From: an uncultured Clostridia bacterium | Lineage (GTDB): Bacteria; Bacillota; Clostridia; Christensenellales; Borkfalkiaceae | Length of the DNA stretch: 64,000 bases | Assembly (NCBI GenBank): GCA_947631325.1 | Contig: CANRKX010000001.1 | Coordinates: forward strand, 12,450-76,449 | Reading direction: 5' to 3' | Shown: one piece after another, positions 4,245 through 61,812 of the stretch | How positions within the stretch are numbered: the stretch's first letter is position 1 | Layout: the number at the start of each line of letters is the position of its first letter | Translations under genes and position numbers: made by a program | Notes under the pieces: generated by a model | The model's database searches: none | What the model was told of the DNA's origin: nothing | The model's input: the letters and a program-made list of their open reading frames with translations, nothing else

Positions 4245-4249
4245 TATAT

Positions 4250-5210: not shown

Positions 5211-5212
5211 AA

Positions 5213-6666: not shown

Positions 6667-6684
6667 CATTGAATTTATTGCATT

Positions 6685-9126: not shown

Positions 9127-9146
9127 TAATTTCTCCTAATTAAAAA

Positions 9147-10667: not shown

Positions 10668-10694
10668 ATTATTATCCCCCTTATTTATATTCGG

Positions 10695-31037: not shown

Positions 31038-32471
31038 TTATACCTTAACCTCGCCCTTTTGACCGAGTACTCCGCCGTTCTCATTCAAAATTGGGTCGAC
31101 TTCGTTTTGAATAAATTCGACCACTTGCGACGGCGCTCTGCCTATAAATTTCTTTGCGTCGAGAATTTCGTTAAGTTTTGAGTGGACGGGCTTAAACATA
31201 TCGTCCGCCTTAATCAGTTCAATCAGATTATTCTCTTTGCCCTCTTCCTTTACGTTTCTTCCCGCTTCCATGGACAGCACTCTTATTCTTTCATGCAGTT
31301 CCTGCCTGTTGCCGCCCGCTTTGACGCATTCCATCATTATGTTTTCGGTCGCCATAAAGGGCAACTCGGCGGCAATGTGCTTTGCAATGACCTTTTCGTA
31401 AACGACGAGATTTTCCGATACATTCATATAGATATTTAATATTCCGTCCAGCGCGAGGAACGCCTGCGCTATCACTATCCTTCTGTTTGCCGAGTCGTCA
31501 AGCGTCCTCTCAAACCATTGGGTGCCCGCCGTAATCGCGCAGTTAGTCGGAAGTGATATTACATATCTTGCAAGCGAGCCTATCCTCTCACTGCGCATGG
31601 GGTTGCGCTTGTACGCCATCGCCGAAGAACCTATTTGTGATTTCTCGAATGGCTCCTCAATTTCTTTCATATTCTGTAAAATTCTTATGTCGTTTGAAAA
31701 TTTATATGCGCTTTGAGCTATCTGCGACAGCACGCAGAGCATATTGTAATCAAATTTTCTCGGATAGGTCTGCCCCGTCACGCCGTAAACTTTATCAAAG
31801 CCCATCTTCTCGACGACTTTGCTTTCAAGTTCCTTGACTTTGCCCTCGTCGCCCGAGAAAAGCTCCATAAAGCTTGCCTGCGTACCCGTTGTGCCCTTCA
31901 CGCCGCGAAGTTTGAAGCTGTTTTCGAGGTTGACGAGGTTATGATAATCCATTGTCAAATCCTGCAACCAGAGAGTTGCGCGCTTTCCGACGGTCGTCAG
32001 CTGTGCGGGCTGTAAATGGGTAAACCCGAGAGTCGGCAAGTCCTTATATTTCAACGCAAAGTTTTTCAGCTTGTCCATGACGTTGACGAGCTTTTCCTTT
32101 ATTATCTGAATTGCGTCATAGGCGATTATCAGCTCGGAATTGCAGTCGACGAAGCAGCTCGTCGCGCCGAGGTGAATTATTGGCATCGCCTTCTTTGCTT
32201 GACTGCCAAAGGCTTTGACGTGTGCCATGACGTCGTGCCTCACCTCCCGCTCGAACTTTTCCGCCAAGTCGAAGTTAATATCTTCGGCGTATTTTTTCAT
32301 CTCGTCGACCTGCTCTTTAGTCACGTTGAGCCCCAGCTCCATTTCGGACTCGGCAAGGGCGATCCACAGCTTGCGCCACAGCTTAAAGCGCTTCTCGTCG
32401 GAAAAGTTTTCCGCCATTTTCCTGCTCGCATAGCGAGTTATCAAGGGGTTCTGATAGACCGAATTATCCAT
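31038..32471 (-). CDS. purB: Adenylosuccinate lyase
   Basis: 477 aa, fumarate-lyase signature GSSAMAYKRNP, PurB-type N-terminus (YQNPLITRYAS). Confidence 0.95.
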   Translation of the reverse strand: MDNSVYQNPLITRYASRKMAENFSDEKRFKLWRKLWIALAESEMELGLNVTKEQVDEMKKYAEDINFDLAEKFEREVRHDVMAHVKAFGSQAKKAMPIIHLGATSCFVDCNSELIIAYDAIQIIKEKLVNVMDKLKNFALKYKDLPTLGFTHLQPAQLTTVGKRATLWLQDLTMDYHNLVNLENSFKLRGVKGTTGTQASFMELFSGDEGKVKELESKVVEKMGFDKVYGVTGQTYPRKFDYNMLCVLSQIAQSAYKFSNDIRILQNMKEIEEPFEKSQIGSSAMAYKRNPMRSERIGSLARYVISLPTNCAITAGTQWFERTLDDSANRRIVIAQAFLALDGILNIYMNVSENLVVYEKVIAKHIAAELPFMATENIMMECVKAGGNRQELHERIRVLSMEAGRNVKEEGKENNLIELIKADDMFKPVHSKLNEILDAKKFIGRAPSQVVEFIQNEVDPILNENGGVLGQKGEVKV

Positions 32472-35884: not shown

Positions 35885-37444
35885 TTAATTTTCTATTTTA
35901 GTGACAAAGTTTCCACTGAACATTTCAGATTTTTGATTTATCACTACATAATTTCCTTCTATTCCAAGGTTTGTAACGTATTCATTATCGTCAGATGACT
36001 TTTGGACTCTTACAGTGAATTCATTTACACCTTTATCGGTTATCTCCGCGACCTTAAATTCTCTAGCTTGGTTTATTCCGCCTACTCCATCGGTTGCAGC
36101 TCCGTTATCAATGAAAAGTCGTGTTGACCCTTCAGTCAAATTGTGTTCGCAAGCCCCAAAGATTGCTTCTACTAACGAATCTCTTGTACCTTGAATCGAT
36201 TTGGTATAACCAAAATTATAATCTCTATTATAGTTAGAAGCGGTTGATTTACTAATAGTTTCATTGATATTGTCTTTTGTAAGATTTTTTACATCTATTG
36301 AACTTGCAAGAGTGATAGTTCCAATTCCATAAACATAGTTGTCAGTTCCGCTTTCATAAGTCGCTGCAAATTTAATTTGATTGATTTGGTCACTTTCACC
36401 AAGATCCCATTTGGACTCTATCAATTTTTCTGCATTAAAGGCTTTACCAAATACAGTTTTACCAATTTGATTAAGGAATGTGTTGTTTAAAGCGGAGTAA
36501 ACTGTCTGAGCAACCTCTCCCTTGGTCAGATCTTCAACCTTTTCAATCTTGTCTGTCTCAGGATCTACTGGAGTTACTGGTGTGTCAGGGTCTTTTTCAG
36601 GATTGCTAGGGTCGTCAGGATCTTTTTCAGGATTGCTAGGGTCAACAGTAGGAGATTGCTTAAATGTTTCATCTGCAAGGCTATAGCTTGTTGAATAGAG
36701 TGTAGCTTGACCGTCTTGTTTTACAGCATAAGTTGCTGTCTCTTCATACGCGAAGACCTTGTTTGGATTGTCAAGATTTTGCATTAAGTTTTCTTTTGTG
36801 TTGTTATCAACGATTACCGAGATTTTGCCGGTCTTGTAAACTCCGTCTTTAAGGTATGTGAGTACAAATTCTCTTACATTGCCGCCGAGAGGGGAGAATT
36901 CAGATTCAGAGAATACCTTTAAGTCAGCATTCCCGATATTTGCAAGAGCAAACAATTTTGCCGATAAGTCAGCATTTTCCTTATTCTCTTTTGAGTCAAA
37001 TTCAAAGACCGTCGTCTTTTGTGTAGTATATTGAACGCTTTCTACCGAGCCGCTTACTATATCGTCCAAAACGACCGTCGGTGAAATGTTTGCCGTAACA
37101 ATATCGATTTTGCGCTTTGTATTGTCAATCTTGTATGTATATACCGCTGTTAAGGTACTTAACTCATTGTTTGAATTTGCACCTATCGAAACGGTTTCGG
37201 CGAGCAATTGCTTGTCGGAAGTTAAAGCCGAAAACTTTTCACGATAAAATTCAACCGCCTTGTCAGAATGGTCTTTTATAAAATCCGCAAAGGTTATGGG
37301 TTCTGTTCCCTCATCTTCTGACTCATTACCGCCGACGGGAGGGTTTACGTTTGTAGTTTCGTTATCCGAACAAGCAGAAAATGCGAACGCGCCGCTCAAT
37401 GCAACAAGTGCCGCTAAAATCAAAGTTAAAAGTTTTTTCTTCAT
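35885..37444 (-). CDS. Predicted lipoprotein of unknown function (two domains joined by a Pro/Asp-rich repeat linker)
   Basis: Signal peptide with lipobox MKKKLLTLILAALVALSGAFAFSAC. AAGGAG RBS precedes ATG 37444. Composition is strongly AT-shifted relative to its neighbours. I recognise no family. Confidence 0.8.
   Translation of the reverse strand: MKKKLLTLILAALVALSGAFAFSACSDNETTNVNPPVGGNESEDEGTEPITFADFIKDHSDKAVEFYREKFSALTSDKQLLAETVSIGANSNNELSTLTAVYTYKIDNTKRKIDIVTANISPTVVLDDIVSGSVESVQYTTQKTTVFEFDSKENKENADLSAKLFALANIGNADLKVFSESEFSPLGGNVREFVLTYLKDGVYKTGKISVIVDNNTKENLMQNLDNPNKVFAYEETATYAVKQDGQATLYSTSYSLADETFKQSPTVDPSNPEKDPDDPSNPEKDPDTPVTPVDPETDKIEKVEDLTKGEVAQTVYSALNNTFLNQIGKTVFGKAFNAEKLIESKWDLGESDQINQIKFAATYESGTDNYVYGIGTITLASSIDVKNLTKDNINETISKSTASNYNRDYNFGYTKSIQGTRDSLVEAIFGACEHNLTEGSTRLFIDNGAATDGVGGINQAREFKVAEITDKGVNEFTVRVQKSSDDNEYVTNLGIEGNYVVINQKSEMFSGNFVTKIEN
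36585..36644 (-). repeat. Tandem 2 x 30-bp in-frame repeat inside the lipoprotein gene
   Basis: tcagggtctttttcaggattgctagggtcg followed by tcaggatctttttcaggattgctagggtca (2 mismatches). It encodes DPSNPEKDPD twice. Confidence 0.9.
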
Positions 37445-37624
37445 GCATTTGCTCCTTTGTGCGGCGAAAAAAAAGTGTGCTCCCGAAAGAGCACACCGCA
37501 CGGTATCTCTTACGGCTACCACACCTACAAACCTAATCTCGAAAGAAAAAAATTAAATTCAAAAGAGATACACAATGCCAAGATTGTGTAATTCCTCAAG
37601 ATTAATTCAGTTTGTAAATGTGGT
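37445..37624 (-). ncRNA. Candidate structured 5' leader (riboswitch/attenuator) or small RNA upstream of the lipoprotein gene
   Basis: It lies downstream of a consensus promoter. Hairpin tacacaat/attgtgta (37590-37569) is followed by a T-rich run. A second hairpin gtgtgctc/gagcacac (37496-37475) is followed by T8 (37474-37467), ending about 10 nt before the RBS at 37457-37452. Confidence 0.45.
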
Positions 37625-48055: not shown

Positions 48056-49210
48056 TTATATTTTTAAAGTCTCTTCAGTTGAAAGCGCAAAATTCACCAA
48101 ACCCTCAACATCAAGCTTTTCTTCCTCTTTGAGAATTTCCTCAATATTGGGGTGAATTGCTGGATGTTTAGGCAAAAAGACGGTACAGCAGTCCTCATAG
48201 GGCTGAATTGAAATTTCAAATGCCCCCATCGCCCTGCTCCTCTCAATAATTTCATCCTTATCAAAGCCGCACAAAGGGCGCAAAACGGGCAAACTTTCAA
48301 TTACGCTGTTTGACGAAGTTATTCCCTCAATCGTCTGACTTGCTACCTGTCCGAGACTTTCGCCCGTAATAATGCACTGCGCGTCAACTTTTTTTGCGAT
48401 TTTTTCGGCAATTCTCATCATAAAACGCCTTAAAAGGGTCACCATAAACTCGCCGTTGCACTTTTTATGGATTTCTTCCTGTATCGCCGTGACCGAAATA
48501 ACGTGCAATTTCGTTCCGCAAGTGTATTGGGAAAGCACTTTTGCAAGCTCAATCACCTTATCCCGCGCCTGTAAGTTGGTATAAGGATAGCTATGAAAGT
48601 GTATGCACTCCACCGCCATGCCGCGTTTTGCAATCATATGCCCTGCAACGGGGCTGTCAATGCCGCCCGAAATAAGCAAAAGTCCTCTTCCGGAAGTGCC
48701 GACGGGCATGCCGCCCGCCCCCTTAACCGATTTATTGAAAACAAGCGTCGTGCCGTTCTCGCGGACGTCAATCGACAGTGTAAATTGCGGATTGTGCACG
48801 TCAACCTTAATATTTTTGAATTGAGACAGCAATCTTCCGCCTATTTCTGCGCTTATTTGCATGGAATTCAATGCAAAAGTCTTGTCCGCCCTGTGCGTTT
48901 CGACCTTGAACGTGCCTTCCGTCGAGCAAACGGACTTTGCGGCGGCGAAAATTTCGTCCATATCGCTTTTAACTTTCAAGCCGACGCTCAAAGAATGTAT
49001 GCCGAACACCTTTTTAAGGCTCTCAACAATGTCGTCCGTCTGGCTCTCGTCAAAATTTTCGATGAGATATCTTCCGCTGCTGCGGCGTATTTCATGCTTA
49101 ATTCCGCCGAGCGACTTTTCCATATTTACAAAAAGCGCGCGCTCGAAAAATCCCCTGTTGTTTCCCTTCAAATGAATTTCGGAATATCTTACAATTATAA
49201 CTTTTTCCAT
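48056..49210 (-). CDS. thiI: tRNA 4-thiouridine(8) synthase ThiI (no rhodanese domain)
   Basis: THUMP N-terminus, PP-loop LISGGIDSPVA, 384 aa. Confidence 0.92.
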   Translation of the reverse strand: MEKVIIVRYSEIHLKGNNRGFFERALFVNMEKSLGGIKHEIRRSSGRYLIENFDESQTDDIVESLKKVFGIHSLSVGLKVKSDMDEIFAAAKSVCSTEGTFKVETHRADKTFALNSMQISAEIGGRLLSQFKNIKVDVHNPQFTLSIDVRENGTTLVFNKSVKGAGGMPVGTSGRGLLLISGGIDSPVAGHMIAKRGMAVECIHFHSYPYTNLQARDKVIELAKVLSQYTCGTKLHVISVTAIQEEIHKKCNGEFMVTLLRRFMMRIAEKIAKKVDAQCIITGESLGQVASQTIEGITSSNSVIESLPVLRPLCGFDKDEIIERSRAMGAFEISIQPYEDCCTVFLPKHPAIHPNIEEILKEEEKLDVEGLVNFALSTEETLKI

Positions 49211-49212
49211 AA

Positions 49213-50340
49213 TTACGCCATTATCCGCTTTCTGTTTGCAACAATTTTATTTAAAATCTGCGCCGCCGCAACTATCTCTTCTTCGGTATTTTCGGGTGAT
49301 AGGCTTATCCTTAAAATGCCGTCGGCAAGATTTTCGCCCACACCGCAAGCTAAAATTACGCGCGAATACCTCTTTTTTTCATTTGATGCACACGCAGAAC
49401 CGGTACCAATGATAAGCCCCGCGTCGTTGGCTTCGTGCATAATCGTCTCGCCGCGCACTCCTTCCGCGCCCACAGTCAGAATATAAGGCGAGCAATTTTC
49501 AGAAGAAATTATCTTAAATAGCGACTTGTCAAGTCGTTGCTTCAAAACCTCGTGCAGTTTTGAAACCTTTTGATAGCAATCCTCGATTTTTTCATATCTC
49601 TTTAAAGCGGCAAATTCAAAATCTTTGATTCCCAAGACGTTTTCGGTGCCGCTGCGAAGCCCGTTTTCCTGCCCGCCGCCGAAAATGTAGGGCTTGATTA
49701 TGAGCTTTTTGCGCTTAATAAGCGCGCCCATACCCTTCAAACCGCCAATCTTATGTGCGCTTATAGAGTACAAATCAATATCGCCCGAAAGCTTGAAATT
49801 CAATTTTCCGAACGCCTGCACCCCGTCCGAATGAAAAATTGTGTATTGATTTTTAGCCTTTATTTTATGCGCAAGCTCAAAAATGTTGTTGATTGCGCCC
49901 GTCTCGTTGCTTACATGTATGACAGAGACAAGCGAAGTTTTATCGTCAACCAAACTCAAAAGGCTGTCCTCGTTGACGCTGCCGTCGGCGTTTAATTGGG
50001 CAAATCTAACCTCAACCCCCCTCTGCTTCAACTCGTTTACGGCGGCAAAGACTGCCGAATGTTCGCCGATAGTGGTCACGACGTTTCCCCTTCTCCCCGC
50101 TCCGAAAATCGCCTGATTGTCGGCTTCGGTTCCACAAGAAGTAAATATAAGGTCATAAGCCGAGCTATCCGCAATGAGCGAGAGAATATTTTTACGCGCT
50201 TCACGCAAGGCGAGCTGAACGGCATATCCTTCCGCATAGAGTGCGGAAGGATTGTAAAATTGGTCAAAAACGTATTTTTCGGCACGGCGTAAAGAGTCGC
50301 CGTCGGGCTTTGTCGTTGCCGCGTTATCGAGATAAATCAT
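49213..50340 (-). CDS. Class V aminotransferase-fold cysteine desulfurase (NifS/NifZ/IscS-like)
   Basis: PLP-lysine context SISAHKIGG and active-site loop GSACAS. It sits immediately upstream of thiI, like the B. subtilis nifZ-thiI pair. Confidence 0.88.
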   Translation of the reverse strand: MIYLDNAATTKPDGDSLRRAEKYVFDQFYNPSALYAEGYAVQLALREARKNILSLIADSSAYDLIFTSCGTEADNQAIFGAGRRGNVVTTIGEHSAVFAAVNELKQRGVEVRFAQLNADGSVNEDSLLSLVDDKTSLVSVIHVSNETGAINNIFELAHKIKAKNQYTIFHSDGVQAFGKLNFKLSGDIDLYSISAHKIGGLKGMGALIKRKKLIIKPYIFGGGQENGLRSGTENVLGIKDFEFAALKRYEKIEDCYQKVSKLHEVLKQRLDKSLFKIISSENCSPYILTVGAEGVRGETIMHEANDAGLIIGTGSACASNEKKRYSRVILACGVGENLADGILRISLSPENTEEEIVAAAQILNKIVANRKRIMA

Positions 50341-53300
50341 CAGATTTCGATAGTTCCTTCAAAGGATAATTTGACCGTACCGTCAAGTTCAACGTCGCCG
50401 TCGTTCATATACTTGACAAAGAGGTCACCGCCCTTGAGTTTTACGGTGATTATTGCGTCCTTCTTGCAATATCCGTTGACGACAGCCGCAACTCCCGCCG
50501 CAGCCGCCGCGGTTCCGCAAGAATAGGTTTCGCCGCTTACCTTATCCCAAACTCGCATTTTTAGGGTCAAATCGTTGACGACGCGCACAAATTCCACGAA
50601 AACGCCGTGAGGGAAATATCCCGATTCGATTATCGCCTGTCCAACGGCATCCAAATCCACGTCGTCCACCTTATCGCAGAAAATCACACAATGGGGATTT
50701 CCGACGTTGATGAGAGTGACGTTATAGGTCTTTCCGCCGAACTCCACGGGCTTCATTATAACTTCGCCATCGAATGTCGAGGGAAGCGCATGCGCGTCGA
50801 AAGAAGGCTTGCCGAGATTTACCGAAACAGAGCTTGCCTTTCCGTTAAACGAGGAGACGTCCAACATCTTCACTCCGCTGCAAGTTTCGATTGCTATATC
50901 TTTATCAGAATTGACAAGTCTGTTATCGAAGAGATATTTTGCAACGCACCTTAAAGGATTTGCCGCCATTCCCCCCTCGCTTCCGTCGCGGTTGAAAACT
51001 CTCATTTTGGCGTCTGCAATGCCCGATTTTTCAATCATAACAATTCCGTCGCCGCCTATTGCATAGTGCCTGTCGGAGAAGTTTATGGCAAGAGATTCGG
51101 GGCAGGTGATTGCGTCGTCCATGTTATTAAAGAAAATATAGTCGTTGCCGCAGCTATGCATTTTGCAGAACTTCAAGCGCAGCTTTTCTGTCCTTAAATT
51201 GTTGATATCGACAAGTTCGGTATTGAATTGATTGTATCTTCCAGCAATGACGTCGGCAAGCGCGTTGGTCGTGTCAAGCGAAGTAAGCACGGTAATTCCA
51301 AGCAAAATCGCATGGTGATGAAGGCTTATGTAGTTGGTTATCGACTCGATATCGGTCTTACCCGTGTATACAACATAGTCAATCTTGCCCTCGTCCATAA
51401 GTTTAAATATTTCGTCGTTGGTGGAAAGGCGGGCGACTTCCGTACATTCAAGCCCCACGCTCCTTATGACGTTTGCCGTGCCCTTCGTCGCATACAGCGT
51501 CAAGCCGAGGTCGGCAAATTTTTTGACGATATTGACAATTTCGAATTTGTCCTGATCGTTTATGGTGAAGTAAATTCCCGAAGGGTGCTGTTTTGTGGGG
51601 TGCTTCATATTGAATCCCGCCGAAACAAGCCCCTTGAAAAGCGCCTCCTCTATCGTCTTGCCTATTCCCAAAACTTCGCCCGTCGACTTCATCTCAGGAC
51701 CGAGCTGTGAGTTGACGTCGTTAAGTTTTTCGAATGAGAATACGGGAACTTTTACGGCGACATAGGGCGAATTTGGATAAAGCCCCGTGCCGTAACCCAA
51801 CTTTTTGAGCTTTGCGCCCATCAGAATTTTTGTGGCGAGGTCAACCATGGGAACGCCCGTAACTTTTGAAATATAAGGTATCGTGCGCGACGCACGGGGA
51901 TTGACTTCTATAACATATAATTCATTCTGATAGATAAGATACTGTATGTTGATAAGCCCCTTGGTTTTAAGCGATATCGCGAGTTTTATGGATATATCCA
52001 CCACTTTTTTTAACATTGCGTCGCTTAAATTATAGGGTGGATATACGGCGATTGAGTCGCCGCTGTGAACGCCCGCGCGCTCTATGTGCTGCATAATTCC
52101 GGGGATAAGTACGTCAACGCCGTCGGAAATTGCATCGACTTCAAGCTCTGTTCCCATCAGATATTTATCGCAGAGAACGGGGTTTTCAATCTTCTGCGCA
52201 AGAATGACGTCCATATATCTTTCAATGTCGTTCTGCGTGAAGGCAATCGTCATATTCTGACCGCCGATGACGTACGACGGGCGCAACAGCACGGGATAGC
52301 CCAATGTCTCCGCAGCCTTAACCGCCTCTTGTTTGCTCATGACCGTCAAACCCTTGGGGCGGGCAATTTCAAACTGCTCCAAGAGCTCGTCAAACCTCTC
52401 CCTGTCCTCGGCAAGGTCAACGCTGTCCGCGGGAGTGCCGAGTATGCGAACGCCCTTTTTATCGAGATATCCGCAGAGCTTAATCGCCGTCTGACCGCCG
52501 AATGTTATGACAACGCCGTAAGGCTTTTCAATATCAATTACGTTTTGAACGTCCTCGGGCGTGAGGGCTTCGAAGTAAAGCCTGTCCGCCGTGTCGAAGT
52601 CGGTGGATACGGTTTCGGGGTTATTATTTATGATGATAACTTCATAGCCCAGCCGCTTCAACGCCCAAACGCAGTGAACCGAAGAATAGTCGAACTCTAT
52701 GCCCTGACCTATCCTTATGGGACCCGAACCTATAACGATAATTCTCTTTTTTGTGCTCCTCGAAACAAAGGGTTTAGCTTCGTCGTGATCCTTTTCATCG
52801 TATGTCGAGTAGAAATAGGGCGTCTGTGCCGCAAATTCCGCGCCGCAGGTATCGACCATTTTGAATACGGCGTCCCTGTGCATGGGCAGCTTATTGTCCG
52901 AAAGTTTTTCAAGTTCTTTATCGGGATAGCCCATCTTCTTGCCGCGCAGATACTGCGCACGGGTAATGGGTTTGCCTGCGATTTCGGCTTCATAATCGGC
53001 AAGATTTTTGAGTTTATTCAGGAACCATTCGTCGATTTTGGTTATTTTGTATATTTCGTCGATAGAAACGCCGCGCTTTATCGCCTGATAGACGACAAAC
53101 AGCCTTTCGTCCGTCAATTCGTGGAGTTTTTCGTATATTTCCTCGTCCGAGAGCTCGGCAATCTTGGGCATATTGAGTGTGCCGACGGATATTTCGGCGC
53201 CGCGGACAGCCTTCATTATCGCCATTTCGAAGTTGGTGCCGATTGCCATAACTTCGCCCGTCGCCTTCATCCTCGTGCCGAGCGTGCGCTTTGCGTATAG

Positions 53301-54395
53301 GAATTTATCGAAGGGCCACTTGGGGAGTTTGACGACAACATAGTCGAGAGTCGGCTCAAAGCAGGCGTAAGTTTTGCCCGTGACGTCGTTTTTTATCTCG
53401 TCGAGGGTGTAGCCGAGGGCAATCTTTGTCGCAACCTTTGCAATGGGATAGCCCGTCGCCTTTGAAGCGAGCGCCGAAGAGCGCGAAACTCTCGGGTTAA
53501 CTTCGATAACAGAATATTCAAAAGAATCGGGATTCAAAGCAAACTGGCAGTTACAACCGCCCTCGATTTTGAGCTCGCTTATAATATTGAGCGAAGCCGT
53601 CCTCAACATCTGATACTCTTTGTCCGAAAGGGTTACGGCGGGGGCAATGACTATCGAGTCGCCCGTATGTATGCCGACGGGGTCGAAGTTTTCCATAGAG
53701 CAGACGGTCAAAACGTTGCCCGCGCTATCCCTCAAAACTTCAAACTCAATCTCCTTCCATCCGCCGATATACTTTTCTATGAGCACCTGCGTTATGGGCG
53801 AGAGCATTAACCCGTTATGGGAAATGAGCCGCAACTCCTCCTCGTCCTTTGCAACGCCGCCGCCCGCGCCGCCGAGGGTGTATGCGGGGCGAACGATAAC
53901 TGGATAGCCGATTCTTTCCGCAATCTTCACGCACTCATCGACAGAATATGCGATATCCGAGGGAACGACGGGCTGATTAATCTTCTGCATCGTCTCCTTG
54001 AAGAGTTCCCTATCCTCCGCCCTGTCGATTGACTCGAGGTTTACGCCGATAAGTTTTACGCCGTACGCGTCGAGGAAGCCCGACTTTGCAAGCTGGCAGC
54101 CGAGGGTAAGCCCCGTCTGACCGCCGAGCGACGCCAAAAGGCTATCCGGTCTTTCCTTTATTATAATTCTCTTCAACGTGTCTACCGTGAGGGGTTCGAG
54201 ATAGATTTCATCCGCAAGAGCCCTGTCGGTCATAATTGTCGCGGGGTTAGAGTTGCATAAGACGACGTTTATGCCCGCGTCTTTCAAAACTCGGCAAGCC
54301 TGCGCGCCCGCATAGTCGAACTCGGCAGCCTGACCTATAACTATTGGACCCGAACCTATGACGAGTACCTTTTTAATATCTTCTCTTTTAGGCAT
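50340..54395 (-). CDS. carB: Carbamoyl-phosphate synthase large subunit fused to a C-terminal DapF-like (diaminopimelate epimerase fold) domain
   Basis: 1351-aa continuous ORF. The first ~1070 aa form a complete CarB (two ATP-grasp halves plus an MGS-like tail). The last ~280 aa carry DapF landmarks. Confidence 0.9.
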   Translation of the reverse strand: MPKREDIKKVLVIGSGPIVIGQAAEFDYAGAQACRVLKDAGINVVLCNSNPATIMTDRALADEIYLEPLTVDTLKRIIIKERPDSLLASLGGQTGLTLGCQLAKSGFLDAYGVKLIGVNLESIDRAEDRELFKETMQKINQPVVPSDIAYSVDECVKIAERIGYPVIVRPAYTLGGAGGGVAKDEEELRLISHNGLMLSPITQVLIEKYIGGWKEIEFEVLRDSAGNVLTVCSMENFDPVGIHTGDSIVIAPAVTLSDKEYQMLRTASLNIISELKIEGGCNCQFALNPDSFEYSVIEVNPRVSRSSALASKATGYPIAKVATKIALGYTLDEIKNDVTGKTYACFEPTLDYVVVKLPKWPFDKFLYAKRTLGTRMKATGEVMAIGTNFEMAIMKAVRGAEISVGTLNMPKIAELSDEEIYEKLHELTDERLFVVYQAIKRGVSIDEIYKITKIDEWFLNKLKNLADYEAEIAGKPITRAQYLRGKKMGYPDKELEKLSDNKLPMHRDAVFKMVDTCGAEFAAQTPYFYSTYDEKDHDEAKPFVSRSTKKRIIVIGSGPIRIGQGIEFDYSSVHCVWALKRLGYEVIIINNNPETVSTDFDTADRLYFEALTPEDVQNVIDIEKPYGVVITFGGQTAIKLCGYLDKKGVRILGTPADSVDLAEDRERFDELLEQFEIARPKGLTVMSKQEAVKAAETLGYPVLLRPSYVIGGQNMTIAFTQNDIERYMDVILAQKIENPVLCDKYLMGTELEVDAISDGVDVLIPGIMQHIERAGVHSGDSIAVYPPYNLSDAMLKKVVDISIKLAISLKTKGLINIQYLIYQNELYVIEVNPRASRTIPYISKVTGVPMVDLATKILMGAKLKKLGYGTGLYPNSPYVAVKVPVFSFEKLNDVNSQLGPEMKSTGEVLGIGKTIEEALFKGLVSAGFNMKHPTKQHPSGIYFTINDQDKFEIVNIVKKFADLGLTLYATKGTANVIRSVGLECTEVARLSTNDEIFKLMDEGKIDYVVYTGKTDIESITNYISLHHHAILLGITVLTSLDTTNALADVIAGRYNQFNTELVDINNLRTEKLRLKFCKMHSCGNDYIFFNNMDDAITCPESLAINFSDRHYAIGGDGIVMIEKSGIADAKMRVFNRDGSEGGMAANPLRCVAKYLFDNRLVNSDKDIAIETCSGVKMLDVSSFNGKASSVSVNLGKPSFDAHALPSTFDGEVIMKPVEFGGKTYNVTLINVGNPHCVIFCDKVDDVDLDAVGQAIIESGYFPHGVFVEFVRVVNDLTLKMRVWDKVSGETYSCGTAAAAAGVAAVVNGYCKKDAIITVKLKGGDLFVKYMNDGDVELDGTVKLSFEGTIEI
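50343..51188 (-). other. DapF-like domain of the CarB fusion (domain annotation)
   Basis: KMHSCGNDY, GNPHCVIF and GETYSCGT are present. The CGNG segment of canonical DapF reads AANP here (FNRDGSEGGMAANPLRC). Confidence 0.8.
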
Positions 54396-55461
54396 TGCGC
54401 TTGCTCTCCTTTATATTTTGAATAAATCTGTCAAACAGGAAGGACGTATCCTGCGGCCCTCCGCAAGCTTCGGGGTGAAATTGCACGGTATAGGCGTTGA
54501 GTTCGGGATAGTCAAATCCCTCGCAAGTGCCGTCGTTGCCGTTGATATAGCTCAACTTCCCGCCGAGAACACTTGAAGAAATAACTTCATAGCCGTGATT
54601 TTGGCTGGATATATACACCCTGCCCGTCGCAAGGTTTTTGACGGGTTGATTTGCGCCGCGGTGACCGTACTTCATCTTCTTCGTCTTGCCGCCCATTGCA
54701 AGTGCAAACAGCTGGTGACCCAAGCATATGCCGAAAATGGGAAGTTTTCCCGCGATTTTTTTGATATTTTGAATGATTTCGACGTTTTCGGCGGGGTCGC
54801 CCGGTCCGTTTGTAAGCATAAGCCCGTCGGGGTCGAGGGCAAGAATTTGCTCGGCAGTGTAGAACGAGGGCACCCTTATGCAGTAGCACCCGCGCTTTAC
54901 AAGTTCGCGAATAATGTTATCCTTTGCGCCGAAATCCCAAACAGCAACCTTTAAGCCCGCGGGGTCTCCGAAATATTCAACCTCGCTGCAAGTCACGCTC
55001 TTTACTGCGTCTTTTATGATATATGAATTTACCGCAGAGAAATCGGCGAGCGGCTTCGAGGTGATTGCGGCATTCATGACTCCCGCCTCCCTCACTATCT
55101 TTGTGAGTTCGCGCGTGTCTATGCCGTAAAGCCCTATTATCCCCTTTTCTTTCAGATATGCGTCAATCGTCTCCTCGCATCTGAAATTTGAGGGCTTTTC
55201 GCACTTTTCCCTGACGATATAAGCCGAAACCCAAGGTTTTTTGCTCTCTTGGTCGGGCTTTATCATGCCGTAATTGCCGATAAGCGGGAAGGTCTGCGTA
55301 ACAATCTGCCCAAAGTAGCTCGGGTCGGTAAGCGTCTCGATATAGCCCGTCATGCCAGTCGTAAACACAAGCTCGCCGATCATCTCGCCGCTTGCGCCGA
55401 ACCTGTAGCCTTCGAACTGCTTTCCGTTTTGCAATGTCAAATATGCTTTAACGTCTTTCAT
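54388..55461 (-). CDS. carA: Carbamoyl-phosphate synthase small (glutaminase) subunit
   Basis: Triad context GICLGHQL and HGYE-type region QNHGYEV. 8-nt overlap with the carB start. Confidence 0.95.
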   Translation of the reverse strand: MKDVKAYLTLQNGKQFEGYRFGASGEMIGELVFTTGMTGYIETLTDPSYFGQIVTQTFPLIGNYGMIKPDQESKKPWVSAYIVREKCEKPSNFRCEETIDAYLKEKGIIGLYGIDTRELTKIVREAGVMNAAITSKPLADFSAVNSYIIKDAVKSVTCSEVEYFGDPAGLKVAVWDFGAKDNIIRELVKRGCYCIRVPSFYTAEQILALDPDGLMLTNGPGDPAENVEIIQNIKKIAGKLPIFGICLGHQLFALAMGGKTKKMKYGHRGANQPVKNLATGRVYISSQNHGYEVISSSVLGGKLSYINGNDGTCEGFDYPELNAYTVQFHPEACGGPQDTSFLFDRFIQNIKESKRNA

Positions 55462-55476: not shown

Positions 55477-56379
55477 TTATTTCATCAGTTTGACCATAAC
55501 CGCTTTTTGCGCGTGAAGTCTGTTCTCAGCTTCGTCGAATATCTCGTTTGCGTGCGCTTCGAAAACTCCCGCGGTTATCTCCTCGCCCCTGTGTGCGGGT
55601 AGGCAGTGCATAACCATAACGTCGCTCTTCGCGTATTTTATGTTCTTTTCGTTTATCTGATAGCCCTTAAAGTCGTGCTCCCTCTGCACCTTTTCCTGCT
55701 CCATGCCCATTGAAGCCCAGACGTCTGTGTATAACACGTCTGCGTCCTTAATTGCTTCGTCCACATCCTCGGTGATGGTGAAATTGCCGTTCTTTTTAGC
55801 CCATTTCATGAGCTCTGCGTCGGGCTCATAACCCTTGGGGCAGGCTATCGTAAAGGACATCTCCTGCTTTATCGTGCCGACCATAAGGCTGTTTGCCATA
55901 TTATTGCCGTCGCCGACGTATGTAAACTTTAAATCCTTGAAGCTGCCCTTGTACTCGCGCACCGTCATGAGATCTGCAAGCACCTGACAGGGATGCGCAT
56001 AGTCGGTCAAGCCGTTGATAACGGGTATTGTTCCGTATTTTGCGAGGTCCTCAACCTCCTTTTGCGCAAAGGTTCTTATCATTATTCCGTCGAGATAGCG
56101 CGACAAAACCCTTGCCGTGTCCTCCACGGGCTCGCCCCTGCCAATCTGCAAATCGTGGCTTGAAAGGAACATTCCGTATCCCCCGAGCTCGAAAATTCCC
56201 GTTTCAAACGACACTCTCGTGCGGGTGGATGATTTTTGAAATATCATGCCGAGCTTTTTCCCTTTAAGGCTCTCGTTCACTATTCCGTGCGAGCGCTCGT
56301 ACTTCAATTGGTCGGCAAGATTTAAGATGGAAAGTATCTCTTCTCTGGTTAAATCGGAAAGTTTTAAAAGATGGTTCAT
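55477..56379 (-). CDS. argF: Ornithine carbamoyltransferase
   Basis: STRTR, HPCQ, DGNNM and HCLP motifs. Confidence 0.93.
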   Translation of the reverse strand: MNHLLKLSDLTREEILSILNLADQLKYERSHGIVNESLKGKKLGMIFQKSSTRTRVSFETGIFELGGYGMFLSSHDLQIGRGEPVEDTARVLSRYLDGIMIRTFAQKEVEDLAKYGTIPVINGLTDYAHPCQVLADLMTVREYKGSFKDLKFTYVGDGNNMANSLMVGTIKQEMSFTIACPKGYEPDAELMKWAKKNGNFTITEDVDEAIKDADVLYTDVWASMGMEQEKVQREHDFKGYQINEKNIKYAKSDVMVMHCLPAHRGEEITAGVFEAHANEIFDEAENRLHAQKAVMVKLMK

Positions 56380-57542
56380 TTGGATATCACCTCGTTCAAT
56401 ATTTTCAATGCTTCGTCAATTTCATTTTTCTTTATGATAAGCGGGGGCAAAAGTCTGACTTTCGTGTGCGCCGTAAGCACAATCACCCCCCTTTCAAGGC
56501 AAGCTTGGGCGACTTCTCGCGCGGGCTTTGTGGTCTCAATGCCTATCATAAGCCCCATGCCGCTGACGTTTATAACGTTTTTTATCCTTGACAGATTTTC
56601 TTTAAAATAGGCGCCCTTGCCCTGCACTTCAAGCAAAAGCTTGCTGTCAATTCGCCTTACTATGCTTATTGCGCCCGCGCATGCGACGGGATTGCCGCCG
56701 AACGTCGAGCCGTGGTCGCCGAAATTCAAAGTATTTTCGCACTTGTCGAACAGCATACATGCGCCAATCGGCAGACCTCCGCCCAACGCCTTTGCCGTCG
56801 TCACGATATCGGGATGAAGCCCGAACGCTTCATAGGAATACATATAACCCGTTCTGCCGTTGCCCGTCTGCACCTCGTCGACAATTAAGAGAATGTCGCG
56901 CTCTTTACAGAATTTTTCGAGTTCTTTTAAGAACTCACCGTCGAGGACGTTGACGCCGCTCTCTCCCTGAATGACTTCAATCATCACGGCGCAAGTCTTG
57001 TCGGTGTATTGCTTTATTATTCCGTCCATAGTGGGTTCGGCATAGCGGAAACCCTCGAGGAAGGGCGAAAAATACTTATGAAATCCGTCTTGCCCCGTTG
57101 CGGATAGGGTGGCAATCGTCCTGCCGTGGAAGGAGTTTTTGAGGGTTATAATCTCATATCTCCCCCCGCCGTACTTCATATCCGAATACTTCCTTGCCGT
57201 CTTTATGGCGCACTCGTTGGCTTCTGCGCCGCTGTTGCCGAAAAACACCTTTTTCGCGCCCGTCTTTTCGCAGAGGAGCTTTGCAAGCTCTGCCTGAGGC
57301 TCGGCATAATAGAGGTTGCAGACGTGTTGTATTTTATTTATCTGGCCTACGACAGCCTTCTTCCACTCCTCGTCGTTAATGCCGAAAGCGTTGACGCCGA
57401 TACCCGTCGCACAGTCAATGTACTGTTTGCCGTCCGCGTCGGTTATAATCGACCCGTGTCCCTCTTTGACGACTATGTTGAAGCGCGCGTAAGTGCTCGC
57501 TATGTAGTTTTTATCGTCCGAAATTACGGTATTTTTATCCAT
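56376..57542 (-). CDS. argD: Acetylornithine aminotransferase
   Basis: Class III aminotransferase: SGAEANE, DEVQTGNGRTG, PLP-lysine context TTAKALGGG. Confidence 0.92.
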   Translation of the reverse strand: MDKNTVISDDKNYIASTYARFNIVVKEGHGSIITDADGKQYIDCATGIGVNAFGINDEEWKKAVVGQINKIQHVCNLYYAEPQAELAKLLCEKTGAKKVFFGNSGAEANECAIKTARKYSDMKYGGGRYEIITLKNSFHGRTIATLSATGQDGFHKYFSPFLEGFRYAEPTMDGIIKQYTDKTCAVMIEVIQGESGVNVLDGEFLKELEKFCKERDILLIVDEVQTGNGRTGYMYSYEAFGLHPDIVTTAKALGGGLPIGACMLFDKCENTLNFGDHGSTFGGNPVACAGAISIVRRIDSKLLLEVQGKGAYFKENLSRIKNVINVSGMGLMIGIETTKPAREVAQACLERGVIVLTAHTKVRLLPPLIIKKNEIDEALKILNEVISK

Positions 57543-57588
57543 TTCCCACTCCTATTTAAAAGAAAGACTGATTTAAAAAATAAATCAG

Positions 57589-58437
57589 TCAATTCAAAAA
57601 CATTGTCCCGCTGCCTTCTTCGGACAATATTTCTACCAATATCGAATGTGCGACTCTGCCGTCGGTGATAAACACCTTATGCACGCCGCGACGAATTGCT
57701 TCTTTACAGCACTCTATCTTGGGAATCATTCCCCCCGAAATTATGCCCTGCTTGACGAGGGCGGGGATATCCGACACATAAACCTTTTTGATAAGGCTTT
57801 TGGGGTCGTCCTTGTTCTGCATAAGCCCTTTGATATCGGTCATAAGAATTAAACTTTCTGCATTCAACGCACCGGCGATTGCAGCTGCGGCGGTATCTGC
57901 ATTTACATTATATATATTGCCCTCGTCGTCATAGCCGACGGTGGAAATGACGGGAATGTATCCGAGATTCAATAAATCGCAGACAAGAGTCGTATCTATC
58001 GACTCAACCTTTCCCACAAAACCCAACGCTTCGTCCTCTTTGGAGCATTTGAGCATGTGCCCGTCCTGACCGCAAAGCCCTGCCGCTTTTCCGCCGTTGC
58101 GCTCCAACAGGTCTACAAGCGATTTATTGACCTTGCCCGCAAGCACCATGCGGACGATTTCGGCTGTCTCCTCATCGGTGTATCGCAAACCGTTGACAAA
58201 GACGGACTTTTTGCCCATCTTTTCGATAGTCGCTGTTATCTCGGGTCCGCCGCCGTGAACGAGAACGACCTTAATCCCCAGCAAATTCAACGCAACGAGA
58301 TCGCGCATAACGGACGATTTAAGCTTGTCGTCCGTCATTGCGTTCCCGCCGTACTTCACGACGAGAATTTTATTGAAATATTTTTTGATATAGGGCATCG
58401 CCTCAATCAAAAATTCAGCCTGTTCCTGCTTGTCCAT
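57589..58437 (-). CDS. argB: Acetylglutamate kinase
   Basis: VVKYGGNAM, VHGGGP and NVNADTAA motifs. Confidence 0.95.
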   Translation of the reverse strand: MDKQEQAEFLIEAMPYIKKYFNKILVVKYGGNAMTDDKLKSSVMRDLVALNLLGIKVVLVHGGGPEITATIEKMGKKSVFVNGLRYTDEETAEIVRMVLAGKVNKSLVDLLERNGGKAAGLCGQDGHMLKCSKEDEALGFVGKVESIDTTLVCDLLNLGYIPVISTVGYDDEGNIYNVNADTAAAAIAGALNAESLILMTDIKGLMQNKDDPKSLIKKVYVSDIPALVKQGIISGGMIPKIECCKEAIRRGVHKVFITDGRVAHSILVEILSEEGSGTMFLN

Positions 58438-58438
58438 A

Positions 58439-59656
58439 TCAGGTCCTGTAATCTCCGTTTATTTTAACATAATCATAAGTAAGATCGCAACCCCACGCCG
58501 AAGCATTCGCCGAGCCGAGGTTTAAGTTGACGTTTATCTTGATTTCGTCCTCAGAGAGAATTATTTTCGCCTGCTCTTCGGAAAAATCTATTCCAAAGCC
58601 CTGCCTGCAAACGGGCAAATTTCCCTTTTTCGACTTAAAATCGACGTCGATTTTCAAGGGATCGATCTTCTCGCCCGAGTAGCCTATCGCGCATAAAACT
58701 CTGCCCCAATTGGCGTCCGCTCCGAACATTGCGGCTTTGACGAGTGAGGATGTTATTACAGATTTAGCGACATTTCGCGCCATTTTTGCCGTTTTTGCGC
58801 CCTTAATGTTGCATTCAATGAGTTTTGTCGCGCCCTCGCCGTCCTTTGCAAGCATCTTCGAAAGTTTGACCGTGCAGTGGTTCAATGCCTTTTTGAATAT
58901 TTTAAGCTGCTCGCCGTCGCCCGTTATCTCCTCATTGCCCGCAAGTCCGTTGCACATTATGCAACAGGTGTCGTTGGTCGATTGGTCGCCGTCAACGCTT
59001 ATCATATTGAATGAAGTTTTGACGTCCTCGGAAAGTGCCTTTTGCAGTACGTCGGGTGCGATTTTGACGTCCGACGTGAGGAAAATGAGATTGGTCGCCA
59101 TATTGGGGCAAACCATTCCCACACCCTTGGCAATCGCGCCTATCCTGCAGGGCTTGCCGTCGATAAAGAATTCAACCGCAACCGATTTTTTTACCGTATC
59201 GGTCGTCATTATTGCTTCGTTCGCGGCTTCGCTGTTGTCGCCGAGACTGTTGTAAAGTTCTTCAATGCTCTCGCTCATGGGAGTCAAGTCGAGTTTTTGA
59301 CCGATAACGCCCGTGGAAGCAACAATTACGTCCTTTGCGGGGATTTTTGCAACCTTTTCAACCAAATCGCACATACCCTCGGCAATCTCTATGCCGTTAG
59401 AATTACAGGTATTGGCATTGCCGCTGTTGCAGATAATTGCCTGTGCATAGCCGTCCGCAAGGTGTTCGCGGGTCACAACAACAGGCGCACCCTTTACGAG
59501 GTTGCTCGTATATACGCCTGCAGACGCCGCGCGAACTTCGCTTAAAATGAGCGCAAAGTCCTTCTTATTCTTATTTTTTCTTATCCCGCAGTGTATGCCG
59601 CCCGCCTTAAAACCATAGGGCGCGCACACACCGCCGTCAATTTCGATTATCTTCAT
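58439..59656 (-). CDS. argJ: Bifunctional ornithine acetyltransferase / N-acetylglutamate synthase
   Basis: Autoprocessing site region ATNLIFLTSD (T of ATN/ATML type). 405 aa, ArgJ fold. Confidence 0.93.
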   Translation of the reverse strand: MKIIEIDGGVCAPYGFKAGGIHCGIRKNKNKKDFALILSEVRAASAGVYTSNLVKGAPVVVTREHLADGYAQAIICNSGNANTCNSNGIEIAEGMCDLVEKVAKIPAKDVIVASTGVIGQKLDLTPMSESIEELYNSLGDNSEAANEAIMTTDTVKKSVAVEFFIDGKPCRIGAIAKGVGMVCPNMATNLIFLTSDVKIAPDVLQKALSEDVKTSFNMISVDGDQSTNDTCCIMCNGLAGNEEITGDGEQLKIFKKALNHCTVKLSKMLAKDGEGATKLIECNIKGAKTAKMARNVAKSVITSSLVKAAMFGADANWGRVLCAIGYSGEKIDPLKIDVDFKSKKGNLPVCRQGFGIDFSEEQAKIILSEDEIKINVNLNLGSANASAWGCDLTYDYVKINGDYRT

Positions 59657-59659
59657 AAT

Positions 59660-60592
59660 TCAGTCCAATGATACTCTTTCATCCAAGCCGAGCATTATAT
59701 TCATATTTTGCACCGCCGCCCCCGACGCACCCTTGCCGAGATTGTCGAGAACGCTCGCAATGAATATTCGCTCTTCGTTTCCGCTTATATATATTTTCAA
59801 AAGATTTGTTCCCGCAAGGCTGTTAGCCGCAAGAAAGGTCGGAACCTCTTCACTTTTTGCTACTTTTACATAGTTCTGTCTGGCATAGTACTCTGCAAAA
59901 TACTCATATAGAGCAGAAATTGTGGCTTTTTTATCCATAAGGCGCACATAAATGGGAACTGTCACCGTCATTCCGCAGTAGTAATCGCAGATTATCGGTG
60001 TGAATATGGGCGTCGATTTAAGCCCGCACTCCTTCACCATTTCGGGCAGATGTTTATGATTTAAATTCAATCCGTAATTTCTCGGCGCGTCAAGCTCCAC
60101 ATCCCTTTCAGCGCTTTCATACACGGCAATGGTCTTTTTGCCTGCGCCCGAATAGCCCGAAATTCCCGTTGCCACAAATGGATATTCGGGAGAGACGAAT
60201 CCGCCCTTCACGAGGGGGGCGACAGCCGCTATAAATCCCGTTGCATAACAGCCGGGGTTTGCAAGCCGCTTTGTCTTTGCAATCTCCTCCCTTCTCTTTT
60301 GAGACAGTTCGGGGAAGCCGTACACCCAATCGGGCGAGGTCCTATGCGCGGTCGAGGCGTCGATTATTCTGACATTGGGGTTTTTAACAAGCGAAACAGA
60401 TTCTCTCGCTGCGTCGTCGGGAAGACACAAAAAGCTAACGTCAGCCGAATTCAGACATTCAGCCCTCGCCGCGGGGTCTTTTCTCTTCTCCTCGGGCAAG
60501 GTTATCACGTTCACGTCGTCGTGCTTTGCAAGCCTGTCGAAAATCTGCAGACCCGTCGTGCCCTCTTTGCCGTCAATAAAAACGTTATACAT
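59660..60592 (-). CDS. argC: N-acetyl-gamma-glutamyl-phosphate reductase (short form)
   Basis: Active-site context ANPGCYATG. 310 aa. 1-nt TAATG overlap with the argG stop. Confidence 0.92.
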   Translation of the reverse strand: MYNVFIDGKEGTTGLQIFDRLAKHDDVNVITLPEEKRKDPAARAECLNSADVSFLCLPDDAARESVSLVKNPNVRIIDASTAHRTSPDWVYGFPELSQKRREEIAKTKRLANPGCYATGFIAAVAPLVKGGFVSPEYPFVATGISGYSGAGKKTIAVYESAERDVELDAPRNYGLNLNHKHLPEMVKECGLKSTPIFTPIICDYYCGMTVTVPIYVRLMDKKATISALYEYFAEYYARQNYVKVAKSEEVPTFLAANSLAGTNLLKIYISGNEERIFIASVLDNLGKGASGAAVQNMNIMLGLDERVSLD

Positions 60593-61812
60593 TACTTTAA
60601 TTTCTTGCTGTCGAGGAGAGCCTTGACCTTAATGGGCAGTCCGAAAAGATTAATAAATCCCTGCGAATCCATCTGATTATAGCAGTTGTCCTCGCCGAAT
60701 GTTGCGATATCCTCGCTGTAGAGCGAATAAGGCGATGTAATTCCCGCGTTCATGACGTTGCCCTTGTAGATTTTGAGCTTGACGTCGCCCGTCACGGTCT
60801 CCTGCGTCTTGTTGACGAATGCGTCGAGGGCTTCTCTCAAAGGCGTAAACCACTGCCCGTCGTAAACCATTTCGCCGTACTTTATAGCGATTAACTGCTT
60901 ATAGTGCTGCGTCGCCTTATCAAGGCAAATTGACTCCAATAGTTCGTGTGCGGCGTACAAAATCGTGCCGCCGGGGGTTTCGTATACGCCCCTGCTCTTC
61001 ATGCCGACAAGCCTGTTTTCGACCATATCGACGAGTCCCACGCCGTTTGCGCCGCCGACTTCGTTGAGCTTTTCGATTAATGCAACGCTGTCGAGAGACT
61101 TGCCGTCGATTGCGGTGGGCACGCCCTTTTCAAAGTGGATTGTAAGATATGTGGGCTTATCGGGAGCCTTCCAAGGCGAAACGCCGAGTTCGCAGATCTT
61201 GTCGTAATCGGGCTCGTTTGCGGGATCTTCGAGGTCGAGTCCCTCGTGCGACAGGTGCCAAAGGTTCTTGTCCTTTGAATAATTGGTCTCCCTGTTAATT
61301 TTAAGGGGAATGTTATGCGCCTCGGCGTAGTCAATCTCCTCGTCGCGGCTCTTGATATTCCAAATTCTCCAAGGGGCGATAATCTTCATTTCAGGCGCAA
61401 ACGCCTTGATTGTAAGCTCAAAACGAACTTGGTCGTTGCCCTTGCCCGTACAGCCGTGGCAGATAGCGTCCGCTCCCTCTTTTTTCGCAATTTCGACAAT
61501 GCGCTTTGCGATAATGGGGCGCGCGAACGACGTGCCCAAAAGGTATTTATTCTCGTAAACAGCCCCCGCTTTCATCGTGGGGTAAATATAATCTTCGATA
61601 AATTCTTTTTTGAGGTCGAGAATATACAGCTTTGACGCACCCGTCTTCTTTGCCTTTTCTTCAAGCCCGTCAAGCTCCGTCGTCTGTCCGACGTCGCCCG
61701 ATACGGCAATGACCTCGCAGCCGTCGTAATTTTCCTTGAGCCAAGGGATGATGATGGAAGTGTCAAGTCCGCCCGAATAGGCAAGCACAACTTTTTTGAT
61801 TTTCTTTTCCAA
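60592..61812 (-). CDS. argG: Argininosuccinate synthase (TTG start)
   Basis: [16 protein letters not shown]-loop, 406 aa. The start codon is TTG at 61812 with an AAGAGG RBS 9 nt upstream. Confidence 0.95.

Follow-up and report, generated by a model that had tools for sequence, protein, structure and literature searches.

A stretch of 64,000 nucleotides from an uncultured Clostridia bacterium of the Borkfalkiaceae (contig CANRKX010000001.1 of GenBank assembly GCA_947631325.1; the whole stretch is called the window here) carries a gene in which the large subunit of carbamoyl-phosphate synthase (CPSase), CarB, is joined in frame to a complete domain derived from the diaminopimelate (DAP) epimerase DapF, with alanine in place of one of the two catalytic cysteines. 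CPSase and DapF are each known; what is new is a naturally one-cysteine DapF domain fixed on CarB. One reading, to which we give a probability of about 0.5, is that this domain is a DapF-derived pseudo-epimerase, retained in the arginine-pathway CPSase as a module that binds an amino acid and probably has a regulatory or structural role. CarB-DapF fusions are not a one-off, as they form a large family that is widespread among gut and rumen Clostridia. Their architecture appears to be undescribed; no publication on a CarB-DapF architecture or on a DapF pseudoenzyme was found in the literature that could be searched.

The fusion gene is one uninterrupted open reading frame (ORF) of 1351 amino acids (aa). 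Its first part is a CarB by its full-length match to the equivalog NF003671 (aa 1-1051, 1442.7 bits, cutoff 599; TIGR01369, 1406.9 bits), its two ATP-grasp units, its oligomerisation and MGS-like domains, and the adjoining carA gene. The second part belongs to the DapF family, with 210.7 bits against the equivalog TIGR00652 over aa 1075-1349 (cutoff 114.65) and a two-domain fold, and not to the bifunctional DapF/glutamate racemases, as it scores 96.5 bits with NF038284 against a cutoff of 350. Pfam recovers all CPSase_L domains (D1, D2 and D3), MGS, and DAP_epimerase (PF01678) in the same ORF. An earlier reading made from the letters of the window alone (the sequence-only reading) had described the fusion from landmark motifs, and KMHSCGNDY, GNPHCVIF and GETYSCGTAAAAAG are all found in the ORF. 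The DNA across the junction (51120-51260) contains neither a stop nor a frameshift, and the junction motif NTELVDIN is invariant or near-invariant across the fusion family. In an independent second assembly (Logan), the 1351-aa protein is identical at 1348 of 1351 residues, with the junction and the Ala-Ala-Asn of the active site matching, which excludes an assembly artefact. An AlphaFold2 (AF2) model of the DapF-like domain has the full DapF fold, with a predicted local distance difference test score (pLDDT) of 92.8 and a predicted template-modelling score (pTM) of 0.88. In a Foldseek search, this model retrieves DapF structures first (2otn_A, template-modelling score (TM) 0.91), followed by PhzF and proline-racemase-like folds. 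The fusion that the sequence-only reading had described is therefore real.

Residues are numbered here as in E. coli DapF, all 274 residues of which match PDB 5ygu/4ijz and which is co-linear with H. influenzae DapF. The best phmmer match among PDB sequences is B. anthracis DapF (2otn, E = 1.5e-55), and in this alignment 'GGMAANPLRC' lies opposite 'GKSCGNGLRC' and 'SCGTAA' opposite 'ACGTGA'. Cys73 is thus replaced by Ala, Gly74 by Ala and Gly76 by Pro, and Cys217 is kept in 'SCGT', so that the two catalytic positions hold Ala and Cys. Both the loss of the Cys73-equivalent thiol with its flanking glycines and the retention of the second cysteine had been read correctly from the sequence, and the alignment to solved DapFs places Ala, not Cys, at position 73. 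In DapF, a thiol/thiolate pair flanks the C-alpha with no other base nearby, and LL-aziDAP alkylates Cys75 of Anabaena DapF, which equals Cys73 in H. influenzae (PMC12039745). Replacement of a catalytic Cys by Ser cuts the activity of DapF-type racemases drastically (PMC8225329). Since the Cys73 base is missing, canonical thiol/thiolate epimerisation should not be able to run in the window domain, and the loss supports the earlier suggestion that the domain is unlikely to be a normal two-thiol DAP epimerase.

The rest of the binding site falls into two parts. The proximal site (N11, G74, N75, G218 and S/T219) is intact, reading N, A, N, G and T in the window, where the sole change, G74 to Ala, affects a contact made by a backbone NH (roles from PMC8225329). 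The distal site (N64, N157, N190, E208 and R209) is altered and reads N, N, F, D and K, whereas copies of the clade lacking Cys73 (hereafter Cys-less) that lie outside the window's own subclade keep all five distal DAP residues. Two cysteines were considered as replacement bases and rejected. In the model, C1098 (TCPES) falls where the outer helix H28-38 begins and is judged peripheral, and the Cys at aa 1310 (NGYC) is also present in relatives that keep Cys73. Apart from this question, C1098 (ITCPES; window 51102-51104) is specific to Cys-less copies, being present in 37 of 46 loci and replaced by N, S or D in Cys73-keeping relatives. At E. coli positions 18 and 49 the reverse holds, with cysteines in the Cys73-keeping relatives and none in the Cys-less copies.

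A domain search of 5.8 billion proteins yielded 852 matches at E < 1e-10. The best 120 of these 852 (52-77% identical), from metagenome-assembled genomes (MAGs) labelled Clostridia, Eubacterium, Ruminococcaceae or 'Candidatus Coproplasma', are all fragments that consist of a CarB C-terminus and a DAP_epimerase domain. In 108 aligned full domains, the window included, position 73 is Ala in 81, Gly in 25, and Met and Ser in one each, but never Cys, and position 217 is Cys in 105 and Ser in three. We also scanned species-representative genomes, with ±10 kb around each locus (L-numbers denote genome loci and P-numbers database proteins); the scan patterns were biased, and the list of 80 loci stops where standalone dapF genes start appearing. 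Among the 80 loci listed, in which no assembly appears twice, there are 46 copies without Cys73 (40 full-length fusions of ~1350 aa and six cut by contig ends), 20 fusions with Cys73, e.g., in Ruminococcus sp. FC2018 and Ruminococcaceae bacterium AM07-15, and 14 standalone dapF genes (~290 aa), all with Cys73. Position 73 in the 46 copies is Ala or Gly, except for one Ser and one Thr (L008). By their labels, CarB-DapF fusions are common in uncultured Clostridia assigned to Christensenellaceae/Christensenellales, Oscillospiraceae, Ruminococcaceae and Ruminococcus.

Loss of Cys73 was found in none of the standalone dapF genes sampled. Among the best 150 representatives at 50% identity, drawn from 1.84 billion proteins, 137 have Cys73 and 11 have Ala or Gly; nine of these 11 contain CarB-derived sequence or are short fragments, and the other two are P0121 and P0180, the latter with an N-terminus like that of Fe-hydrogenases. 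Two candidates for a standalone Cys-less copy were set aside: P0090 is really a fusion cut by a contig end, and P0047 (L081) lies on a 1.4 kb contig with 1.7x coverage that may be a chimera. That contig (L081:1-1362) opens with 41 codons, the end of a fused DapF of the Cys-keeping type (72% identical to L060/L067), and 92 nt further on comes the gene of P0047, a standalone Cys-less DapF-like protein with 83% identity to the domain fused in L001. The two lie either in a true tandem or on a chimeric assembly. Other architectures were also met. In P0225 (776 aa), DapF is fused N-terminally to a Mur ligase, and in P0182, P0207 and P0264 (666-742 aa) a degenerate N-terminus resembling the start of CarB ('MPLNRQIKKVL...') precedes DapF; both cysteines are present in all of these. 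In public databases, the proteins of the fusion family are annotated as 'diaminopimelate epimerase, partial' or 'carbamoyl-phosphate synthase large subunit'. With such labels, a working dapF could be counted by mistake when the pathways of gut and rumen Clostridia are reconstructed, and lysine or peptidoglycan capability could be mis-called.

In a first neighbour-joining tree of DapF domains, the fusions are nested within standalone dapF and the Cys-less sequences within the fusions. As relatives with both cysteines exist fused as well as unfused, fusion came first and cysteine loss later. Support for the core Cys-less clade (37 full-length loci, the window included) is 200 of 200 bootstraps with the CarB columns, whether alone or combined with those of DapF, and 115 of 200 with the DapF columns by themselves. 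Three C73G fusions (L038, L050 and L068) fall outside this solid clade, with 70-72% identity to Cys-keeping fusions versus 62-65% to the core clade, and are also closer to Cys-keeping fusions than to one another. A single origin of the loss is therefore rejected by the bootstrap, and Cys73 was lost more than once. Two copies of dapF at one locus were seen only in L051 and L077. In L051 (Neglectibacter caecimuris; 4119-10843), a fusion with both cysteines is followed 1.8 kb downstream by a standalone dapF with Cys73, and in L077 (an Acutalibacter MAG; 4411-7703) the distance is 0.7 kb, so the fused domain is able to coexist with a standalone Cys73 dapF. The fused domain of L077 has lost both cysteines, N64, N75, H159, E208 and T219, but is full length and 76% identical to that of L051; it lost its cysteines separately from the core Cys-less clade. 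Its intact length shows that a fused domain can be retained without any catalytic machinery.

The history suggested by the sampled relatives would begin in Clostridia of the Oscillospiraceae/Ruminococcaceae/Christensenellales type, where dapF was joined in frame to carB at its 3' end, with both cysteines present at first. The ancestor of the large clade that includes the window would then have exchanged Cys73, the thiol acting on the L-centre of LL-DAP, for Ala or Gly, and separate losses of Cys73 would have occurred in a few more fused copies. The extant forms make up a graded series, from unfused through fused with two cysteines, fused with one and pocket rebuilt to fully degenerate, and the fusions among them show a route from an enzyme to a pseudoenzyme or to new chemistry. 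They are also a natural experiment, in which the epimerase half of a conserved fusion of two textbook enzymes repeatedly loses one catalytic cysteine under selection.

That selection acts on the domain is evident from its rates of change. In Cys-less pairs with a synonymous divergence (dS) below ~1.2, the ratio of nonsynonymous to synonymous divergence (dN/dS) is 0.08-0.32 for the DapF-like part and 0.04-0.20 for the CarB part, and the divergence ratio of DapF domain to CarB is 1.39 in Cys-less fusions versus 1.48 in Cys-keeping ones. PMC8225329, which cites Pillai 2006, and PMC12039745 name eleven DAP-binding or catalytic residues: N11, N64, G74, N75, N157, N190, E208, R209, C217, G218 and S/T219. 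Over the 46 Cys-less loci, their mean conservation is 0.962 versus 0.691 over all columns, and none of 100,000 random column sets was as conserved. The domain is full length and untruncated in more than 100 diverged sequences. Low dN/dS together with the conservation of the pocket means that the domain is no decaying relic, and suggests that the pocket is still used in most of the Cys-less clade.

The window belongs to a subclade with a derived signature, A73-A74-N75-P76, which is found in 22 of the 108 aligned sequences (window included). Within it, N190 has become F (13 sequences) or Y (9), R209 is K and position 74 is Ala in all 22, and G220 is Ala in 21. E208 is variable (12 E, 7 D, 2 G, 1 N), as is G210, and 18 of 22 have N157. 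An intact proximal site is seen in 21-22 of the 22, and Cys217 is present in every one. A kept proximal site and a rebuilt distal site also mark specificity switches in DapF-fold racemases such as PddB (PMC8225329). With the distal carboxylate site rebuilt and the proximal alpha-amino-acid site intact, the ligand of this subclade is probably no longer DAP. The fusion protein of the window is 83-84% identical to its nearest genome relatives, L001 and L003, in CarB and 60-62% in the DapF-like part, which thus diverges ~2.3-fold faster than CarB, against the usual 1.4-fold.

The fusion gene is the eighth of a co-directional row, argG-argC-argJ-argB-argD-argF-carA-carB::dapF'. Among fusions with enough upstream sequence, arg genes lie directly upstream of 22 of the 34 Cys-less copies versus none of the 15 Cys-keeping ones (Fisher p = 1.7e-5, with loci treated as independent of phylogeny). 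Taken together, the conservation of the domain, the recurrent and selective loss of Cys73 in fused copies only, and the enrichment in arg operons favour a non-epimerising, ligand-binding module. The fold, the purifying selection, and the retention of Cys217 and the DAP-holding residues across the clade indicate that a ligand is most likely still bound; the domain would close its cleft on an alpha-amino acid without turning it over. Attached to the allosteric (MGS) end of CarB, it would then bind its ligand in a regulatory role, a structural role or both, and DAP epimerisation, if the cell needs it, would fall to another gene. A more specific proposal, which we put forward tentatively and consider less probable than the general one, is that the domain is a new allosteric sensor of CPSase, i.e., a dead epimerase that closes on an amino acid and signals to the MGS domain, or alternatively a one-thiol enzyme with a new reaction. 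Most of the clade would sense DAP, and the window's subclade another amino acid, possibly one of the arginine pathway such as citrulline, ornithine or arginine. If true, such a sensor would be a new regulatory input to CPSase that ties arginine-specific carbamoyl-phosphate synthesis to the sensed metabolite, and the repeated, selective loss of Cys73 with Cys217 and the pocket kept would point to selection for a domain that binds its ligand but does not turn it over. The candidate roles named in the sequence-only reading, a one-base enzyme, a ligand sensor or a scaffold, are all left standing, with none singled out.

Three observations weigh against the pseudo-epimerase module. AF2 of aa 930-1351 gives no confident docking of the domain on MGS (pTM 0.63, with pLDDT < 50 for the linker at aa 1055-1066). 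The near-universal Cys217 is unneeded for mere binding and fits a one-thiol catalyst equally well. Finally, the MGS-DapF-like module is present in two in-frame deletion variants that lack the synthetase domains of CarB, which hints at a role independent of CPSase activity. In P0127 (512 aa; L083:8001-9539, also L084), the ArgF N-domain (aa 9-133) leads into CarB aa 967-1060, and the Cys-less DapF-like domain that follows has its pocket intact; four contigs carry the gene, which adjoins a dcw cluster (mraZ, rsmH, a penicillin-binding protein (PBP) gene and a Mur ligase with a DNPR motif) with no arg operon nearby. P0292 (722 aa; L085:6001-8169) consists of CarA aa 5-245, CarB aa 842-1060 and a Cys-less DapF-like domain, and its gene sits within an argC-J-B-D-F operon that is complete in all other respects; 10 members make up its protein cluster. 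No diverged relative was found to share the architecture of the ArgF(N)-DapF remnant P0127, which was therefore rejected as an old one.

The main rival is a one-thiol enzyme, in which Cys217 alone would take the alpha-proton for a beta-elimination, dehydration or isomerisation of a non-DAP substrate, with the trans-3-hydroxy-L-proline dehydratases as its parallel; we regard it as clearly less probable than the pseudo-epimerase module. In its favour, Cys217, G218, T219, N75 and N11 are kept in 21-22 of the 22 subclade members with only the distal site altered, the loss is recurrent and selective in that Cys73 goes while Cys217 stays, and in two lineages the MGS-DapF-like module has outlived the catalytic domains of CarB. 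Koo et al. (2000) reportedly found that C73A DapF is inactive as an epimerase but retains alpha-proton abstraction and HF elimination from fluoro-DAP. The kept proximal and altered distal site also accompany substrate switches of DapF-fold racemases (PMC8225329; PMC11602996). However, the operon offers no obvious substrate or pathway partner, and position 73 is Ala or Gly rather than a Thr/Ser helper as in the dehydratases, with Thr in L008 only. Moreover, E208, G210 and N157 vary within the subclade, which looks less like a new, well-defined site than like relaxation, and the domain of L077 persists thiol-free.

That the domain is still the DAP epimerase of the cell is improbable. Cys217 would have to work with a water, with Asp11 (in some members), with a thiol supplied in trans, or with a residue of CarB or of the dimer partner. 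No second dapF was found in the 64 kb window (tblastn) or within 10 kb of any of the 46 Cys-less loci, all DAP-binding residues are conserved outside the window's subclade, and the fused copy may well be the sole dapF where fusions keep Cys73. The organism with the Cys-less remnant P0127 also has a MurE with the DNPR motif, which we take to mark DAP-adding enzymes. Against these points stand the absence of a compensating Cys near the site, with C1098 modelled as peripheral, the absence of any basic residue near the thiols in DapF structures (PMC12039745), and the near abolition of activity when a catalytic Cys is replaced (PMC8225329). Even less probable is that the domain drifts neutrally as a relic without function, left over from a protein that was once bifunctional and kept only because its deletion would harm carB or the translationally coupled nifS. 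The accelerated divergence of the window lineage, the partly variable pocket positions of its subclade, and the pocket decay that L077 proves possible would all fit drift. However, drift is contradicted by the dN/dS values, the untruncated domain in so many diverged sequences, and a pocket conservation far above background, and the new residues of the subclade (K209, A74, A220 and F/Y190) are fixed, or nearly so in the case of A220. A sequencing or assembly error as the source of the fusion or of the missing Cys is refuted for practical purposes; no point in its favour was found, and beside the Logan protein, dozens of species-level genomes have the NTELVDIN junction and Ala or Gly at position 73.

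Comparison with known systems helps to place the pseudo-epimerase module that we favour. Canonical DapF (EC 5.1.1.7; B. anthracis 2otn, H. influenzae 2gke, E. coli 4ijz) resembles the window domain in its two-domain fold (TM 0.87-0.91), in the TIGR00652 score above the cutoff, and in N11, N75, G218, T219 and Cys217. It differs at positions 73, 74, 76, 190, 208 and 209, and in being a standalone protein of ~280 aa, whereas the window domain sits on the C-terminus of CarB. The trans-3-hydroxy-L-proline dehydratases arose from two-Cys proline-racemase-like enzymes, in which the loss of one Cys led to a one-base reaction. They share the superfold (Foldseek 6r76 and 4k7g, TM 0.69-0.74), but this is a match at the level of fold only, as they belong to another, ProR-like family (11-13% identical), are unfused, and have Thr in place of the lost Cys, giving a Cys/Thr pair where the window has Ala/Cys. 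The H. influenzae DapF mutants C73S (2q9h) and C73A have the same single-site defect as the window domain and reportedly fail as epimerases while still removing the alpha-proton (Koo et al. 2000); they are laboratory mutants, whereas the state in the window is natural, ancient and under selection. HisZ is a catalytically dead paralogue of HisRS that serves as a regulatory subunit of ATP-phosphoribosyltransferase (HisG). By analogy only, it too is a homologue of an amino-acid-binding enzyme that has lost catalysis and become a module of a biosynthetic enzyme; however, its fold is unrelated, it forms a subunit of its own, and experiments have established its regulatory role, whereas that of the window module is a proposal.

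PddB (2,4-diaminobutyrate racemase), DcsC (O-ureidoserine racemase, 7vdy) and the histidine racemase of F. nucleatum have a conserved proximal and a rebuilt distal site like those of the window's subclade (PMC8225329). They differ in being standalone and in having both catalytic cysteines (PMC8225329; PMC12039745). The Cys-keeping CarB-DapF fusions (L042 from Ruminococcus sp. FC2018, L075 from AM07-15, and L051) share the architecture, the junction motif and the length of ~1350 aa, but have Cys73, the full DAP pocket and no arg genes directly upstream (0/15). These are probably active epimerases. Their sequences are present in databases, and no papers on them were found.

Table 1. Positions in the window of the fusion gene, its parts and neighbouring elements.
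Feature	Position	Strand	Basis
CarB-DapF fusion ORF, 1351 aa, uninterrupted	50340..54395	(-)	ORF call and translation
CarB part, aa 1-~1060: two ATP-grasp units, oligomerisation domain, MGS-like allosteric domain	51216..54395	(-)	NF003671, Pfam
Junction, aa ~1055-1074, with NTELVDIN motif	51174..51233	(-)	no stop, no frameshift
DapF-derived domain, aa 1075-1351, full DapF fold	50343..51173	(-)	TIGR00652, 2otn match, AF2
A1144-A1145-N1146-P1147 codons, in place of canonical C73-G74-N75-G76	50955..50966	(-)	alignment
C1293-G1294-T1295-A1296 codons: Cys217 kept, G220 = Ala	50508..50519	(-)	alignment
Rebuilt distal-site residues F1266 (N190), D1284 (E208), K1285 (R209)	50541..50600	(-)	alignment; roles from PMC8225329, PMC12039745
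carA (CPSase small subunit), overlaps carB start	54388..55461	(-)	NF009475, 439.8 bits
argG-argC-argJ-argB-argD-argF, upstream of carA	55477..61812	(-)	family profiles
Promoter-like site, near-consensus, upstream of argG	61903-61875	(-)	
nifS/iscS-like cysteine desulfurase, then thiI	48056..50340	(-)	family profiles
Strong terminator-like hairpin 3' of thiI	48051-48029	(-)	

Downstream of the fusion gene, the ATG of nifS and the stop of carB::dapF' overlap by one base (TGATG, window 50338-50342). The nifS-thiI pair recurs downstream in seven loci, all Cys-less (L001-L006 and L008), and also in L082. No argH was found in the arg operon of the window (55477-61812) or elsewhere in the 64 kb; the only Lyase_1 protein in the window (31038-32471) is purB-like, with an adenylosuccinate-lyase C-terminal domain. 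Within the 46-nt gap between argB and argD lies an AT-rich 10-bp hairpin followed by a T-run (57566-57590, minus strand), which could be an internal attenuator or a chance match. An Rfam scan of the window returned two tRNAs only, and no leader element of the operon. Between groEL and a gene of the methionine gamma-lyase family lies a 545-aa ORF with a GTG start (35885-37522, minus strand) and without a Pfam match at E < 1e-8. The rest of the window is ordinary chromosome, with mutS, mutL, miaA, groEL, purB, proC, oxaloacetate decarboxylase genes and a class A PBP.

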